Shown: positions 57,351 to 64,000 of the stretch, piece after piece
Position numbering within the stretch: position 1 is the first letter of the stretch
How the letters are laid out: each line of letters begins with the position of its first letter
Assembly: GCA_965645245.1 (NCBI GenBank)
Contig: OZ287071.1
Span: forward strand, 744,001-808,000
DNA: 64,000 nucleotides
DNA from: Massalongia carnosa
Lineage: Eukaryota
Direction of reading: 5' to 3'
Notes under the pieces: model-generated
Seen by the model: the letters and a program-made list of their open reading frames with translations, nothing else
What the model was told of the DNA's origin: nothing
Databases searched by the model: none
Translations under genes and position numbers: made by a program

Positions 57351-59509
57351 TCAACGAGTTCCTCGGTCAATCATGCGTCCTGCGTATGCAAGAACAGAAA
57401 GCGGGTCCGCATGCGAACTAGGAAAAGCTTCGTAGTTAAAATCCTCGTTGTTCGAGTTCGGTCTCTGATCTTGTTCTAGGGAGAGTTGTTGGGTAGTAGG
57501 CAGAAAAGGGCGATGTGGAGGCCGTTGTGCCTCTGAAAGCTCTCGCGCTAACTGCTCATGATCATTGCTCGAGTCTGGATTGATACCTGTAAGCGTCAGA
57601 TTCCTGAGCGACCTCCTTTCTTGCGTTATATCTTCTCGGCACCAGAAAGATTAGCGAGAATTTGGCTAACTAACGCTACCCAGCATGAGGCAAAAGGAAT
57701 AGATGGACGAAATGGAAAGGCTTACCGGATGACGATGACGAGAGAAATTGAGATTGCAATGGTGGGGGCAACGTGTAGGCCGAGTTAGGTTGACTGCCAA
57801 GGGGCGTATATACTGATGGTCCGCCAGCATCTGCATACGCAGAGCTCAATATAGGCTTCAGTCCAACGGTGGATAAAGGTGGCAGAGATCTCTGAGACTT
57901 TCCTTCCTCGGTTAAAATCACCGGAGTGTGGATGGAGGAACCGGGTGTGACGCCGCTGGATAATGACGACGACTTGGACGATACCGAAGAGTCCTGACGA
58001 AGAAAAGAGACAGGGAGTCTACTTGATCTTCGAAAATTGTGTTTTGGGCTGATGCGCCCTCGCGACGCTTTCGGATCAGCCAAGAGAGCAGAGATATTGC
58101 TTGGTATCATGTGCGTATCCCGAGTATCTAAGGGAATCATCCGAGGAAGGCCATGACCGTGCATGATGTCTGTGCTCCTGTCTAAGTGATTCTCCCCCAA
58201 CGGCTGAGGCTGCGACAACAGCTGAGGAGAACGCTGAAGGGTGGGCTCTTGGCGAGTGTCTGTCAGAGGTGGAATGGGAGATTTTGGTGCGAAGAGCGAA
58301 GAATGATTGCCGAACATATTTGGGGGTGCCATTGTAACAGGCACGCTCCCGGACGAAGGCTGATCGTTTTTCGTTGGATGCATGTGTGTCGCGCTTACGG
58401 GCTCAAATATTCGTCCAGTAGCGTTAGTGGTTGGCGACAATTCTCCTGCTTCTGCGGGGCTTCCAGCGCTTCCACTTCTCGCGGTGCTGGTATCTCTTTC
58501 GAGTCGAGGCCGCTTACCCTCTGGCCGAATTAGCCGTTTAAATGCATGATATTACACCTAAGCTAATTTTTGGGAGATGGATAGAGTCTCCTACCTGCGT
58601 TCGACGCGTTTTTGGCCTTGAACTCGGCCAAATAAAGCGCATACTCCTTGTACGCATCGGTCTTTTTATATTTGGCCATTTCAGCGTGATATTTTTCCTT
58701 TGCTGCCGAGGCCTGGGATTCGTATGGTTCCTTTCCCTCAGCTAACAGTACCTGCCAATTCTCTCCGACACGTTTCGCAATGTCCGTGAACGATAAATTC
58801 TGCGGTCTAAGCTCTTCTCTTATTCCTACAATAGAATTAGCCAGAGAACCGGCGGAGAGAGTCGAATCAAGCACTGTTTGAGAATATGACGTAGGCCGAT
58901 GGAGGCCGTTCAGGAGCATTCTCGTCGGCCTATTGAGGCGCCATCGATGAATTAGCTTGAATCGCTCAGATAGAGCCAGTTAGGGTTGACACAATTTTCT
59001 GCAAGAGGAAAAATTAACAACGTACCTTTGGATGACGGCGATATTTCCTTTTCCCACCAGCACCAGCACCAAAAGCTCTGTTGCCGTTCCTGTTGTACAA
59101 CGATTTGTCTTCGATTCCAGCGATTCTGCCTTGCTCCACCGACGGTGAAGTCCTAGGGGATGCGAGGTGCCGCTCAACAGTATAACCTCGTGCACTGGCT
59201 ATTTCCCGTTGTAGCTTCTGTTTTCAAATTAGTCGCCTTTCAACAAGTACAAGCTCCATTGGAATATGAGAATATCCACAAGGTTCAAGAAATCTCTCTG
59301 GCTTACCCTTCTGTGGCCAAGCTTCACGTTAAGAGCATCGCTGGGTTTACCACTTAGCCGAGAAGCAAGATGACGAAATTCAAGATAGCATACAGGTCTG
59401 ATTCGGTGATATCCAAGATTGTTTCCCACGTATCGAACCCTTCATCAATGAAACTCTCTAAATATTGAATCAAACCCAACCGAGACAAGACTGGACCCAG
59501 TTCCGTCAT
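57351..59509 (-). CDS. SAM-domain plus HMG-box transcriptional regulator, multi-exon
   Basis: N-terminal SAM (LSRLGLIQYLESFIDEGFDTWETILDITESDL|DALNVKLGHRR|KLQREIA), KRKYRRHPK|ADENAPERPPSAYVIFSN|RIREEL..LSFTDIAKRVGENWQVL..KEPYESQASAAKEKYHAEMAKYK (HMG box). Last exon ends ADPLSVLAYAGRMIDRGTR*. Confidence 0.88.
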
Positions 59510-60920
59510 ATAAGCTGACAGTTCTTGGAGTATCGAGATACTCCAAGATGACTCCACCTATCCCTTTGTTTCCTCCAACGCGGCGTTTAGTCCTTGTTGA
59601 GAATGGCGACCTGGGTGCAACTTTCCCATACGATGCAGATGTCAAGATATCGTTCTCAGAAGCCACCAGTGGTTTCGGTCACGTTGCTCACTTTGAGCTG
59701 CGTATTTTTTGATACTACAATCGAGTTGACGTTGAAGATAGACCAGAAGATGTAAATTTAAGGCAAAGTGGTAGACACCCCATCGGCACCTCGACTCGCA
59801 AGTAACGATCTACCGAAAGTACCCTTGTATGTAACAATAGTTTGCTTGCAGTATTCAACATCAACAGATGGGACTTTTGAGTATAGTGGCAGACCTCAAA
59901 ACTTCAATGAACAGGAAGAGATGGGAGGGATGTTCCGAACAGGCGAGCTAAGTTGAATTTGATGTCGAGAGAAACCCTGTTGACCGTCTATGGGTCTGAG
60001 AGGTTAGCTCCATTATGCCTTATTTGCGCAGGATATCATGCCAACCTGAAAGCAGCACTGCGGAAAGCATTGTGGCCCTTTCGACATAAAGTCAGGATGG
60101 GTTGGTTATACTTTTCGAGCGCATTTCCTTACCGGTGTGAGTTTTACCGTGACGAGACCATAAAAGATATGAGCAGGCAATGATGGGCATCAATCGCGCT
60201 CTAGGTTGTCGTGGGGGCGGAGGTGAGAAAGAGAAAGTGGGAGTCGGGACGTGCAGATCAAAATTCACCAAGGGGTATAGTTAACGCAGCAGACTCGAAG
60301 CGCAAGGGAGGGTCTCGATGATGAAGGATTTCAAGATCGAAAGGATCGCGATGTAAATGATAAAGCTGATGGGACAATGGGAATGTAGATGGGGAGACGG
60401 GGATGGCAAATTCGGTTCGCATCGGACACTTGCGTGTTCTCCCATGCGGAACGCCAGACAAAGACGAGCTGAGAGTAAGAGGAAAGGAAACTCGGAGGGG
60501 TGGGAGAATAGGAAAATACCGATTCGTGGTGTCTGATTGATGCGAACATTGTGGTCTGCACGTCCACGCAGCAGAGCGTTCTTTGGATGGAAATCGACGA
60601 TATTAATGGTGAATCGTAGATTCAGCTGGTCGGAGAACATGGCCATGACCCGGGGAATCAAGCGATGGTCAGCCCAAGACGCGACGACTATTTAATCTCA
60701 GATCTGATGTTAGCGGCACTAATAATACTAACAATACCGAGGACGAAACAGGTAACAGCCTGACATGGGGATGCATCATTGGTTCGTGGGGCATGCCAGG
60801 GACCAATAGTCCAACGATGGTTGGTCGATGGGAGTGGAGAGATGGCATGAAATTTACGCTAGTGGAACGCATTTAGATGCACTCCAGAATACTCGATCTT
60901 GAATTTGTTTGAAGCCGGTA

Positions 60921-63410
60921 ATCGTCGGCTCGCTTAGCTCCGTGGATCCGACTAAAATGCGAAAGCATTTTAGTCGGGGAAAGCGGTGCATCCAGCCAAA
61001 ATCATCAAATTTTCATCTTTTTCACCTTTTACCCTCAATCATCTGAATAACTACCTTGATTATTGACGATTTAATCACCTCATATTGATAAGTATAGCCT
61101 TCCCAGCATTTATTCCTAAAATAACTAGTTATTTCATCGGATTGTCGCATATTCAGCTTTTCTATACGTCCTCAATCATCCTTTTTATCCATCATTCTTA
61201 ACCCACTCCATGGATAGTAACGCCCCCATTCTCAATCCCATGGAGGAAGCGAAGCAATTTCTGAAGACAAATCCCAAAGAAACCAAGATGACTGCATCTA
61301 GACTTTTCAACGTCAACGTTAAAACGTTGACTTCTTCCATTCGTCGTTGTTCGGGAGTGAAAAATGGAGGACAAAATCAGATATTGAGAGATCATGAAAC
61401 AAAGGCTATCAATGGTTTTATTCAATCTTTGTTGGTGCATGGAATTCCACCTACGCATCGAATCGTTTTTAATGCCGTTGTAAGCTTGAAAAAGCTCATA
61501 ATCCCCTCGATGTAGGGCCGTCAAGACGATGGTTTCGGGATTGGTGGAAGCGTAGCAATTTGCATAAAATCAAGACAAAACCATTGTCCATGATCCGATT
61601 TGAAGCCGCTCAGGAATCGGATGTGACCAGATGGTTTGCTGATTATAGGCATGCATTGAAAACACTGAATATTCGAAAAAGACGAAATATTCTGAATTTT
61701 GATGAAGCTGGCTTCCGCATTGGGTGCATGAGGGGACAGGAAATTCTTGTTCCCATGGAAATTAAACAATTCTACGCGGTCAGCCCGGAAAACCGTAGAT
61801 CGGCGACGATTATCGAGACAATCAATGCTGCCGGCGACTATCCCCTCCCTCCAATGGTCATCATACAAGGTCATGACATCATGGCCATATGGTTTTCGGA
61901 TGATCTGCCACAGGGCACGCATATCGTGCCTTCGGACAGTGGATTTACATCTGATAAGATAGCAGTTGAATATCTGAAGCATCTTATCAAGAATTCAGAT
62001 GCAGGACCGAATGCGGATTGGAAATTGTTGCTTATGGATAATCACGGCAGTCATATTACTCCTGAATTTGTTGCTTTGGCCAATGAAAATCATATTCGTC
62101 CTTATCCACTAATTCCGCATTTAACCCACTGTATGCAGCCATTGGATGTGGTGGTATTTCAACCCTATAAGCATTGGCATAATGTGGCTATTCAAGAGAC
62201 TATATCGGAGTCATTTATTGAGTATTCCCTGACGCAATTCCTGAAGGATTTGGTCAAAATCAGGAATAATACCTTCAAACCATCCACTATTCGACATGCC
62301 TTTGAAAAGTCGGGCATGTGGCCTGTTAATCCAAAAGCATGCATTCAACAGCTGAAAACATTCAATCCCAACAATCCAAACAATCTGACTGAGATTCTGA
62401 CCGAGACGAATAATGATAATCAGCTCCCATTACCCCCCCTACCTCGTCAAATCCAACCAAGGGAAATAGCCGACATAGAATATGGATTGGATCATCAATG
62501 GGGACCAAAAATTCAGGAATCTATGCAATGGAGTGACCCCATTCGGGCTGAGGAATTTGACTCATTCGTTATCAATGCAAAAGAAGTTATTTCGAACTCG
62601 ATTCTCAAGGAAACGGAGCTGAAAATGTGGCAACAGACACGAATGCAACAGTTAAACAGTAGAAAATTTTCTCGCAAACGACTGAGACCTGAATCAGGAA
62701 AATTGGGACTGACTAAGGAAGATGCGGAGCATGCCTTAACCATGAAGCTACAACACGAAAAAAAGGCTGAAAAGAAACGAGTGGACAATAAGTTTATGAA
62801 GATATGGAGAATGGAAAGAGACGAAATTCACGTCAAGGGAATGGCTGCTCGAAAAGCAGAAAGGGATCGAGTCAAACTATTAAAAGAAATGACCAAAACC
62901 CTCAATCCCATACCAATTGAGTTATATGAAGCAATTTCTGACCCCGAGGCCTTATGGAAAGCGACGAATGAGGTGTGGATAGCTGAGGAAGCGAAGAAAG
63001 AAGCCAGAAAAAATCCACGTGTCAATGCTACGATTGATGAGGAAGACCGCGATTGTAGTAGATGAAGAATCATGGGTGCAGAGAGATTTCGGGGGCTCCA
63101 TCGAGATGCAAAGTGATTTCGTATCTTTCATGGATGAAGAGGATGAGGAGAATGCGGGGTATGGGGGGAACCGGAAGAATCGGGGGGATCGAAGGGATCA
63201 GGGGGGTCGAGGGGATGATTTTGATGATGGTTATGATGATGACACTGTTTTTCAAGCTTTGTATGACGTTAGCTAATGATTAACCCAGATGATTGAGGGT
63301 AAACGGTGAAAAAGATGAAAATTTGATGATTTTGGCTGGATGCACCGCTTTCCCCGACTAAAATGCGAAAGCATTTTAGTCGGATCCACGGAGCTAAGCG
63401 AGCCGACGAT
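60921..63410 (+). mobile_element. Fot1/pogo-type (Tc1/mariner superfamily) DNA transposon, 2490 bp, 125-bp TIRs, TA target-site duplication
   Basis: TIRs at 60921-61045 and 63286-63410 match at 120 of 125 positions. TA flanks at 60919-20 and 63411-12. Internal DD35D transposase. Confidence 0.96.
61210..63276 (+). pseudogene. Fot1/pogo DDE_1 transposase broken by two apparent frameshifts
   Basis: HTH-like N-terminal ORF 61210-61515 continues in another frame after an A5 run at 61489-93 (..SLKK/AHNPLDVGPSRRWFRDWWKR..). Catalytic residues NFDEAGF, LLMDNHGSH, QPLDVVVF (35 aa between D2 and D3). The acidic tail resumes in another frame near 63046. Confidence 0.85.
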
Positions 63411-63735
63411 TAATATTACTCTCTGTATCTGTACTATACTTACAGAGAGTCAAAAGGCGAACGTAGATGGCGGAAAAGGCTCGTGCAAGGTAAGACCACG
63501 CGAGTAATCTTTGGATCCACTAATTGTAAACACGTCAAGTGCCTGAACCGTACGGAGAAAATTTCAGGACATTACGAAATCGGTCGATGGTGAGCCCGAA
63601 CACGATCAAGCCACACTTCCTCGAGTCAGGTCAGCTCGGCTGCGTTAAAGAGTACGGCAGTTTAAGCTGATGGACTTTCAACTCCTAATTTCAGATTCCT
63701 GATTTCCTAATTTTTAATTCCTAATTCTAATTCCT

Positions 63736-63798
63736 GATTCCCGATTCCCGATTCCCGATTCCCGATTCCCGATTCCCGATTCCCGATTCCCGATTCCC
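63736..63798. repeat. Heptamer microsatellite (GATTCCC)9 with a degenerate AT-rich 5' extension from about 63686
   Basis: Nine perfect units counted, preceded by aattcct/aattct/gattcct variants. Confidence 0.92.
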
Positions 63799-64000
63799 GA
63801 ATGCTGATTCCTCTTCTTATCGCCCACGGACGGCATTCTCTCCCCGTATCCGCCTTACACCCAAGGGTCCCGTGGATTCCAGGTAGAGTTATTAAAGTCT
63901 CGAAAACTCTTCCACCGAAGATCTTGAAAGCCTCCTCCAAGTTTCTAACATTACCACCTTGACCTTAGAGCTAAGGCGGTCAGTCTACATCCCACCACCC

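Follow-up and report, generated by a model that had tools for sequence, protein, structure and literature searches.

The two ends of a dead transposon in the 64-kb stretch of DNA analysed here (hereafter the window) are no longer exact inverted copies of each other: a four-base loop at the centre of a perfect palindrome within each terminal inverted repeat (TIR) has the same sense at both ends. We consider that the best explanation, with a probability of roughly 0.7, is a neutral inversion of this 4-bp loop, arising in a single event by template switching at the palindrome, in a dead copy of a Fot-type element. Its catalytic domain, TIRs and target-site duplication identify the element, which lies in a fungal genome, as a dead cut-and-paste transposon of the Fot family (pogo superfamily). 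The case is a known type of mutation, palindrome loop inversion, in a known kind of fungal transposon end.

Organisation of the element

The features to which the text refers are given below with their coordinates in the window.

60921..63410, plus strand: Fot/pogo-type DNA transposon, 2,490 bp; single TIR pair and single transposase match in the window
60919..60920, no strand: left TA target-site duplication; context ...ccggTA followed by ATCGTCGG
63411..63412, no strand: right TA target-site duplication; context CCGACGAT followed by TAatatt
60921..61045, plus strand: left TIR, 125 bp, from inverted-repeat search and arm comparison
63286..63410, minus strand: right TIR, 125 bp, from inverted-repeat search and arm comparison
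60948..60977, no strand: left nested palindrome with 13-bp stem; loop at 60961-60964, GAAA on the plus strand and GAAA read end-inward
63354..63383, no strand: right nested palindrome with 13-bp stem; loop at 63367-63370, GAAA on the plus strand and TTTC read end-inward
60971..60977, plus strand: TAGTCGG block, outer part of the 3' stem arm; mirror copy at 63354-63360
60978..60993, plus strand: subterminal repeat unit GGAAAGCGGTGCATCC, one copy here; mirror copy at 63338-63353
61210..63276, plus strand: transposase gene (DDE_1, DD35D), frameshifted; three pieces against P0123, and contig differences
61027, no strand: fifth TIR mismatch, T versus G at the mirror position 63304

With the TA included on each side, the inverted-repeat arms (60919-61045 and 63286-63412) span 127 nt and are 96% complementary. 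No second copy of the element was found in the 64-kb window when TIR words, the hairpin and the transposase were all searched. Read from the end inward, each TIR consists of a TAATCGTCGG terminus, a GC-NNNN-GC octamer, the TAGTCGG block and a GGAAAGC-type subterminal repeat, a layout which is that of the clade to which the element belongs. The subterminal repeat is probably a transposase-binding site, and its GGAAAGCGGTGCATCC unit is tandemly duplicated in some contigs of sequencing runs X3, X4 and X5 (loose ends at 60978 and 60993). In relatives that share this terminus, the flanking TA is followed by any of the four bases (t, c, g or a), and this variation indicates that the target-site duplication is TA and not TAA.

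The transposase and the state of the copy

The DDE_1 domain (PF03184) is recognised in the window reading frame (E 4.5e-16), in the intact relative P0123 (E 1.2e-14) and in 18 of 19 aligned relatives. The DD35D triad of P0123 comprises D165, D277 and D313, with 35 residues between the last two; in alignment A1 D165 is invariant and D313 nearly so, and D277 is present in the consensus but is not among the invariant columns listed. The transposase of the window copy aligns to P0123 as three pieces that are 97.7-98.7% identical to it, and, with the majority contigs and intact 689-aa relatives as reference, is broken by two frameshifts, where deletions have removed 1 bp after 61488 and 2 bp after 63045. 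The window copy is a dead element carrying a frameshifted pseudogene. An intron between two of the transposase frames was considered and ruled out, because the intact 689-aa relatives, together with the additional A that follows 61488 in most of the contigs, identify the interruption as a frameshift. No N-terminal HTH was matched by Pfam in P0123 at E up to 1, and HTH_Tnp_Tc5 is represented in 3 of the 19 relatives by weak matches (best E 0.011); no solved structure matching the transposase profile was found. The named protein relatives are hypothetical proteins of fungi, which we take to be Leotiomycetes; subfamilies among the relatives form clusters at 72-84% protein identity.

Probable inversion of the palindrome loop

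The first-pass annotation had described a 30-mer that is repeated directly inside the inverted repeat, 27 bp from each end. A repeat search recovers this exact 30-nt repeat, CCGACTAAAATGC-GAAA-GCATTTTAGTCGG, at 60948-60977 and 63354-63383, and the hairpin does begin 27 bp inside each terminus of the element (60921-63410). Comparison of the arms likewise bears out that the loop reads GAAA on the plus strand at both ends and that the four loop bases make up four of the five TIR mismatches: aligned with the reverse complement of the right arm, the left arm shows 5 mismatches in 127, four of which form a block at 60961-60964 (GAAA versus TTTC), and the stem arms are mismatch-free. Since this block is an exact reverse complement, it is attributable to one event and not to four substitutions, and it is bounded by perfect 13-bp inverted arms, as is characteristic of a template switch. 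A search for the palindrome in which any loop was accepted and as many as three mismatches were tolerated returned two matches in the 64-kb window, and none of 100 shuffles contained any.

The 30-mer folds as a hairpin whose 4-nt loop caps a stem of 13 bp (z = -9.0 for DNA and -8.8 for RNA). The energies of the hairpin with its two loop versions are -13.8 versus -13.4 kcal/mol as DNA, 0.4 apart, and -19.7 versus -18.8 kcal/mol as RNA, 0.9 apart, so that in the nearest-neighbour model the loop version is predicted to matter little to hairpin stability (less than 1 kcal/mol).

We infer the following mechanism for the flip. During DNA synthesis the nascent strand would, inside one arm of the stem, change its template to the complementary strand, copy the loop backwards and then return inside the other arm; inter-strand template switching of this kind would leave the stems intact and give an exactly reverse-complemented loop. 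The change would be neutral or nearly so. Loop-only inversions at perfect hairpins have been reported in 69 template-switch cases, typically with 4-nt loops (PMC8794818, in excerpt), and hairpin-associated minute inversions in plastid DNA by Kelchner and Wendel in 1996, as summarised in PMC3123225 (in excerpt). The window element resembles template-switch mutations (PMC8794818, PMC5453318) and the minute inversions of plastid DNA (PMC3123225, PMC2903610) in that a short loop, here of the typical 4 nt, is exactly reverse-complemented between unchanged arms. It differs from documented loop inversions in its site, a TIR belonging to a nuclear DNA transposon, and in that both the event and its polarity are reconstructed from sequence. 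A micro-inversion at the palindrome was one of the two readings offered in the first-pass annotation, and it fits all the tests run.

Loop states in independent sequencing runs

Four runs (X1, X3, X4 and X5) were compared as contigs built from 31-mers. These contigs end at the TIR borders, with either loop type placed on the end that it fits, and because of this break the loop state is not assignable to a given end or copy. Contigs from the runs of two other studies carry the right-end loop version with its flanking context, and every 31-mer across the loop extends past the palindrome, which makes the two loop types distinct words. The window letter at 63370 accounts for a depth of 21.4 of 50.4 in X3, 2047 of 6236 in X1 and 24111 of 38744 in X5, and among the differences listed none falls at 63367-63370 besides a separate A>C variant. 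As contigs from independent runs contain each of the two loop states, we take the pattern not to be an artefact of assembly. It is therefore extremely improbable that the right loop is in truth TTTC on the plus strand and was altered during assembly or polishing, even though assembly is prone to error at palindromes and inverted repeats and the runs were compared as contigs.

The A>C change belongs to a diverged variant that differs by six other letters and one gap in 75 nt, has the right-type orientation and carries the octamer GCGAACGC on the plus strand (A>C at 63370 and 63373). Its orientation implies that the state is not private to the window copy, or that it has had multiple origins. 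Summed depths, which as contig depths are not a measure of copy number, are approximately 36-42 for the left-type loop versus 21.4 for the right type plus 29 for the variant in X3, at most 17517 versus 2047 plus 4189 in X1, and at most 68155 versus 24111 plus 14633 in X5. The ratios thus differ from run to run, where a fixed design with one loop of each type predicts about 1:1, although this is a weak argument. In X3 the depth of the right-type loop (21.4) is close to that of contigs from the interior of the element (24-27), which would fit most copies of the subfamily having one flipped end; if so, the state would be inherited and would not prevent transposition, and it might have a role.

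The occurrence of both loop states, and of the diverged variant in right orientation, at substantial depth in X1, X3 and X5 also bears on the idea that the element is chimeric. Copies uniform for one loop state at both ends would then coexist with copies uniform for the other, the window copy having acquired one end from each class through gap repair or gene conversion between copies after excision, and the inversion would have happened earlier, in another copy. The varying depth ratios would suit such an origin, but we think it unlikely, as the TIRs of the window copy are identical save for the loop and one base, the variant, which differs at six letters and has one gap over 75 nt, was not the source of the right TIR, and at least one loop inversion would still be required. 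No empty-site joint connecting 60918 to 63413 is present among the joints listed.

In X4 the right-end hairpin is without a contig (bins 63314-63480, depth 0.05 and 0), and the left-type contig, at a depth of 2.97, has two different outside flanks. A copy whose loops are inverted in the normal way could account for this, but a hole at a depth of 2 proves nothing.

Terminal repeats of related elements

The comparison set comprised 41 related metagenome loci with TIR pairs, the metagenome relatives being 27-50% identical. The median TIR length over these loci is 91 bp, with 18 of the 41 having TIRs of at least 100 bp. Nested TIR palindromes are found in 12 of the 41 elements, 17 in total, and their loops are normally inverted in 15 cases and diverged yet closer to normal in the other two. 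With 0 of 17 flipped, same-sense loops are not a design of the clade.

Parts of the TIR are conserved in relatives. In alignment A3, positions G41, C42, G47 and C48 of the GC-NNNN-GC octamer are invariant across 12 aligned TIRs, as are G55, T56, C57 and G59 of the TAGTCGG block in 12 sequences. The octamers of the relatives are GCGTTCGC, GCATTCGC, GCTCTCGC or GCTGTCGC, mostly without a long stem. As far as these alignments go, the octamer is a clade-conserved TIR block around which a long stem is usually absent, and in the window lineage it lies at the centre of the perfect 13-bp palindrome. Words of the form GCGN(N)AGC are approximately 9-fold enriched in the TIRs of the clade (3.0 versus 0.34 per kb per strand) and show a consistent strand arrangement there; on these grounds the octamer itself may have a genuine function. 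The relatives carry these words on opposite strands at the two ends, as normal inversion requires, and in at least three lineages the word is found at the apex of lineage-specific palindromes.

Wider scans were also made. Two bacterial palindromes from a pattern scan of genome contigs are taken as chance matches, and scans of viral contigs gave no match. Among reading frames crossing the loop with an end-specific tail, four window frames are absent from the protein collection and there were no other candidates.

Concerning polarity, the left end is somewhat the likelier of the two to have flipped. The right loop, read end-inward as TTTC, matches the pyrimidine-rich GC-NTTC-GC block of the relatives in alignment A3, and this alignment, combined with the strand rule of the GCGN(N)AGC words, favours the right end as ancestral. 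Alignment A2, which was made without the right end, places the left loop on the repeat core and favours the left end as ancestral, and pairwise scores are evenly split, each of the two versions giving the better fit to 5 of the 10 relatives. The proposal that the left end is canonical, its loop resembling the repeat core, was dropped after alignment A3 and the strand rule.

Comparison with known transposons and terminal hairpins

TIRs of approximately 100 bp (type 3, FotC), a DD35D triad and TA duplications are described in Fot clades, the TA duplication being confined to FotC and FotD (Gao et al. 2020, PMC7386202, in excerpt), and Fot1-type TIRs hold two 17-bp direct repeats (PMC2836289). As these features are already on record, the suggestion in the first-pass annotation of an undescribed pogo subfamily is not upheld. 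The Fot family (Fot1, Tan1, Aft1, Trem; FotC/FotD) has DDE_1, DD35D and TA duplication in common, and a length of about 2.5 kb, one transposase gene, TIRs of about 100 bp and TIR-internal 17-bp repeats are common to this family and the window element (PMC7386202, in excerpt; PMC2836289). Unlike the described Fot elements, the window element has a perfect 13-bp palindrome nested in each TIR, and no description of such a palindrome in Fot elements was found in the literature searched.

Transposases of the DDE class act on double-stranded ends. Tc1/mariner elements with IR/DR-type ends, such as Sleeping Beauty and Tc3, possess long TIRs in which an outer site is accompanied by inner, repeated transposase-binding sites; the window element is analogous in its long TIRs with putative outer and inner sites, but differs in the word at the core of its repeat (GCGAAAGC/GGAAAGC). 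IS200/IS605 elements and Helitrons use HUH/Y1 or Rep enzymes and are without TIRs or TA duplication, and their hairpins act in single-stranded intermediates. In parvovirus flip/flop, a palindrome at the physical terminus of a linear, single-stranded genome adopts two loop orientations and is resolved by a Rep nickase. Parvovirus hairpin priming is mentioned in PMC8794818 (in excerpt). If the palindromes were functional, the window element would resemble these systems in its strand-specific hairpins near the ends or in its two loop orientations. However, in contrast to IS200/IS605 and Helitrons it has 125-bp TIRs, a TA duplication and DDE_1 as the only enzyme family found, and in contrast to the parvoviruses its palindrome lies 27 bp inside an integrated dsDNA element with host DNA on either side. 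No Rep-like protein was found.

The mini-hairpin word and its possible role

The other reading in the first-pass annotation was a fixed, strand-specific structural signal, in which the sense strand of the transposase would retain a stable GCGAAAGC-capped hairpin at either end, acting in ssDNA or RNA and making the ends non-equivalent. The exceptional stability of d(GCGAAAGC) on which it drew is supported, the Tm being 76.5 C versus 33 C for GCTTTTGC (PMC13037366, in excerpt), and this counts in favour of such an asymmetry, as do the enrichment of GCGN(N)AGC in the TIRs of the clade, its apical position in the palindromes of three or more lineages, and the depth of the right-type loop in X3, which is near that of the element. 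Nevertheless, it is very unlikely that the loops constitute a signal of this kind, and the fixed signal finds no support: the words of relatives lie on opposite strands at the two ends and 0 of 17 palindromes are flipped, on a 13-bp stem the cap is predicted to add less than 1 kcal/mol in the nearest-neighbour model, and a cruciform in dsDNA shows one loop of each kind in either orientation. Furthermore, the enzyme is a DDE (DDE_1) transposase and not an HUH enzyme, Rfam gives no match in 60800-63500 at E up to 1, and the copy is a pseudogene. The proposal that constant GAAA/GAAA loops among copies would support function is a weak criterion, since young copies receive both ends from one master and constant loops would show only that a flipped end is tolerated.

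The octamer at the apex in the window is exactly the d(GCGAAAGC) word of mini-hairpin DNA, GCGN(N)AGC, and the octamers of the relatives, read on the other strand, are GCGAACGC, GCGAATGC, GCGAGAGC or GCGACAGC, all of which are listed with a Tm of 67-72 C (review PMC13037366, in excerpt). In the window element the extra stability of the word counts for little, because the stem that it caps is 13 bp long. It is conceivable, though doubtful, that GCGN(N)AGC is a single-strand or cruciform transposition signal, or a nucleation point for the growth of fold-back palindromes and for loop flips. The word may then be located 10-40 nt inside each end on the transferred strand, the 3' end of which is the terminus, and the apex palindromes of at least three lineages would have unrelated stems (13, 9 and 6 bp). 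If this were true, the window family would be a natural case in which both loop isomers circulate among mobile copies.

As it stands, a neutral loop inversion by template switching is of little significance, beyond illustrating that a cluster of TIR mismatches may reflect one event. Should ends of both loop states prove mobile, the orientation of the octamer would be irrelevant to a pogo-type transposase; alternatively, transposon-end palindromes would be hot spots of template switching at which events are countable in each copy. What might merit the attention of specialists is that GCGN(N)AGC words are enriched in TIRs across the clade. Loop-length differences misalign the arms in alignment A4 of a second nested palindrome (L064 group), which presents candidate co-varying stems.

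The inverted repeats and the flipped loop

The only DNA transposon of the region is a Fot/pogo-type element whose ends, in window coordinates, are organised as follows:

60921-63410: the element, with TA at each flank
60919-61045 and 63286-63412: inverted arms, 96% complementary
60948-60977 and 63354-63383: exact 30-mer direct repeat, CCGACTAAAATGC-GAAA-GCATTTTAGTCGG

The left arm and the reverse-complemented right arm differ at 5 of 127 positions, namely the four loop bases (GAAA versus TTTC) and position 61027. When the 30-mer was searched with a free loop and no more than 3 mismatches, two matches were found in the window, and none of 100 shuffled sequences contained any. The first-pass annotation's description of the terminal inverted repeats (TIRs), the 30-mer and the loop was right in all details according to this comparison and search. 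Inter-strand template switching leaves a signature of this kind: the loop exactly reverse-complemented, the perfect arms around it intact. PMC8794818 describes 69 inversions confined to the loop, which is typically 4 nt long, with a route for their origin, and PMC3123225 links minute inversions in plastid DNA to hairpins, the stabler hairpins inverting more frequently; PMC5453318 and PMC2903610 also deal with template switching and loop inversion. A perfect 13-bp stem is a good substrate for such switching. The exact reverse-complement loop and the untouched arms support the earlier proposal of a micro-inversion, and the loop flip is an ordinary mutation. A variant of this reading, in which the window copy is a chimera built from copies of opposite loop state, needs a loop inversion somewhere in the family anyway. 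The literature searches turned up no account of palindromes with flipped loops in Fot/pogo TIRs among the papers listed.

Nested palindromes in related elements

A metagenome scan recovered 80 loci (handles L001 and onwards) encoding relatives with 27-50% identity. TIR pairs were found in 41 of these, with a median length of 91 bp and at least 100 bp in 18 of the 41, so that long TIRs are normal in this group. All 41 were searched for nested palindromes (stem of at least 7 bp, up to one mismatch, loop of 3-10 nt), yielding 17 spread over 12 loci, a count that includes the copy pairs L064/L069 and L045/L065, each of one family; the 498-bp arms of L050 extend to both contig ends and are a possible artefact. 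Loops are exactly inverted between the ends in 15 of the 17 palindromes, and the other two, from the L045/L065 family, are diverged, with the normal state nearer than the flipped one. Flipped loops are thus seen in 0 of the 17 palindromes from the 41 loci, and the window element is alone among the elements compared in having same-sense loops. The L075 lineage may represent a further case, as the loops of L075 (3356-3475; TGGA, TAAA) resemble at both ends the reverse complement of those of its relative L064 (3798-3917; TCC, CTTCT), loops too short for certainty. A second nested TIR palindrome occupies the same place across families in alignment A4 (L064:3859-3879, L068:3609-3627, L075:3416-3433, L072 and L080). 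Its constant place, together with covariation of the inner stem pairs (GGGCACCT/AGGTGCCC, GGCACTC/GAGTGCC, GCACGTC/GACGTGC and GCACGT/ACGTGC), indicates that it is maintained.

It had also been proposed that the same-sense loops provide a functional, strand-specific hairpin signal at both ends. This is unsupported and unlikely, since the two loop versions differ by only 0.4 (DNA) or 0.9 (RNA) kcal/mol in computed folds, a cruciform in duplex DNA presents both kinds of loop, one each, whichever way the sequence is oriented, the transposase is of the DDE type, the loops of relatives stay normally inverted, and no Rfam family matches the element region (60800-63500, E up to 1).

A conserved octamer and the polarity of the flip

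Alignment A3 comprises both ends of the window element and ten TIRs with a TAAT(C/A)G terminus. Its invariant columns are G41, C42, G47 and C48, which form a GC-NNNN-GC octamer, G55, T56, C57 and G59 within TAGTCGG, and A63-C66, the repeat core. The octamers of the relatives (GCGTTCGC, GCATTCGC, GCTCTCGC, GC-TTCGC, GCTGTCGC and GC-TCCGC) are pyrimidine-rich when read from the end inwards, as is that at the right end of the window element (GCTTTCGC). The GCGAAAGC "cap" was therefore inherited as a block instead of being built for the purpose. L005 and L006, which have the closest TIRs, possess the octamer without the long surrounding stem.

Mini-hairpin words, GCGN(N)AGC as defined in PMC13037366, number 52 across the TIR arms (8,658 nt) and 61 across the element interiors (90,220 nt), or 3.0 versus 0.34 per kb per strand, an approximately 9-fold TIR enrichment in the Fot-like clade. 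They are located as follows:

Window, 60959-60966 and 63365-63372: GCGN(N)AGC words
TIR arms of L003, L008, L012, L014, L018, L019, L036, L049, L052, L056, L061, L064 and L069: GCGN(N)AGC words

A bottom-strand word is found in 14 loci at offsets 9-41, and it precedes the top-strand words in the five loci that also have these, a rule by which the right end of the window element would be canonical and the left end flipped. Against this rule, alignment A2, built without the right end, matched the left loop with the repeat core, and pairwise scores of the left and right versions against relatives are tied at 5 to 5. On these sequence comparisons we lean slightly towards a canonical right end and a flipped left end. 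The clade-wide pattern of GCGN(N)AGC words is the single feature that might repay more work.

Other copies in sequencing runs

The element is present in five runs from three studies, and four runs (X1, X3, X4 and X5) were examined. All four consist of contigs assembled from 31-mers and interrupted at the TIR borders, which do not allow a loop state to be assigned to an end. The right-end loop version occurs in X1, X3 and X5, and this recurrence makes an assembly artefact unlikely as the source of the flipped loop. The window's letter at 63370 has a depth of 2047/6236 in X1, 21.4/50.4 in X3 and 24111/38744 in X5. A diverged variant with GCGAACGC on the plus strand at the right-end site (A>C at 63370 and 63373) contributes 38-67% of depth; it has the orientation of the element's right end and the octamer of L006, and the contig bearing it in X3 differs by 6 letters and 1 gap over 75 nt. 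Outside flanks vary among X4 contigs, indicating that the family is inserted elsewhere too. A 17-bp subterminal unit, GGAAAGCGGTGCATCC(C), single at each end of the window copy (60978-60993 and 63338-63353), is tandemly doubled in some contigs of X3, X4 and X5; two internal 17-bp direct repeats are reported for Fot1-type TIRs in PMC2836289.

Summed depths of left-type and right-type loops (the versions at the element's left and right ends) show no constant 1:1 ratio across runs, and in X3 the right-type depth of 21.4 is near the interior depth of 24-27, a comparison that is only a hint as contig depth is not copy number. These data cut both ways, hinting on the one hand that the family as a whole has no fixed same-sense design, and making it probable on the other that several copies of the window's subfamily have the flipped state in common.

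Transposase and family assignment

The long frame of the element contains a DDE_1 domain, and an intact 689-aa relative (P0123) has D165, D277 and D313, giving DD35D. The protein collection includes 14 relatives of more than 90% identity, which lie on several megabase-scale contigs and of which three are intact at 689 aa; additional clusters, of 55, 29 and 17 members, stand at 72-84% identity. Pfam detected no HTH domain in the intact protein at E up to 1, and HTH_Tnp_Tc5 matched in 3 of 19 relatives with a best E of 0.011. The named relatives, all hypothetical proteins, come from Scytalidium, Drepanopeziza and Pseudogymnoascus, all of them Leotiomycetes.

The window transposase aligns to the intact protein in three pieces (97.7-98.7% identity). 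Its gene is one A short after 61488 and two bases short after 63045 relative to the majority contigs in all four runs, so that the window copy is frameshifted; an intron was ruled out by the extra A of those contigs and by the intact 689-aa relatives.

In PMC7386202, DD35D is reported for nearly all Fot elements and TA duplications for the FotC and FotD clades alone; TIRs of "type 3", ~100 bp long, occur chiefly in FotC. The window element matches Fot elements in its DD35D, TA duplication and ~100-bp TIR, features already known for these clades, so that the suggested undescribed pogo subfamily is unsupported; the element belongs, as a new member, to a transposon family that is already known.

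An 18-nt unit repeated 2.1 times (63179-63216) falls within the transposase's C-terminal tail, which is acidic and rich in glycine. Two 7-nt tandem repeats, ATTCCCG x 11.7 and TCCTAAT x 8.4, adjoin the right side of the element (63683-63811), and an HMG-box reading frame (58566-58979, minus strand, E 1.2e-09) lies 2 kb to the left of the insertion.
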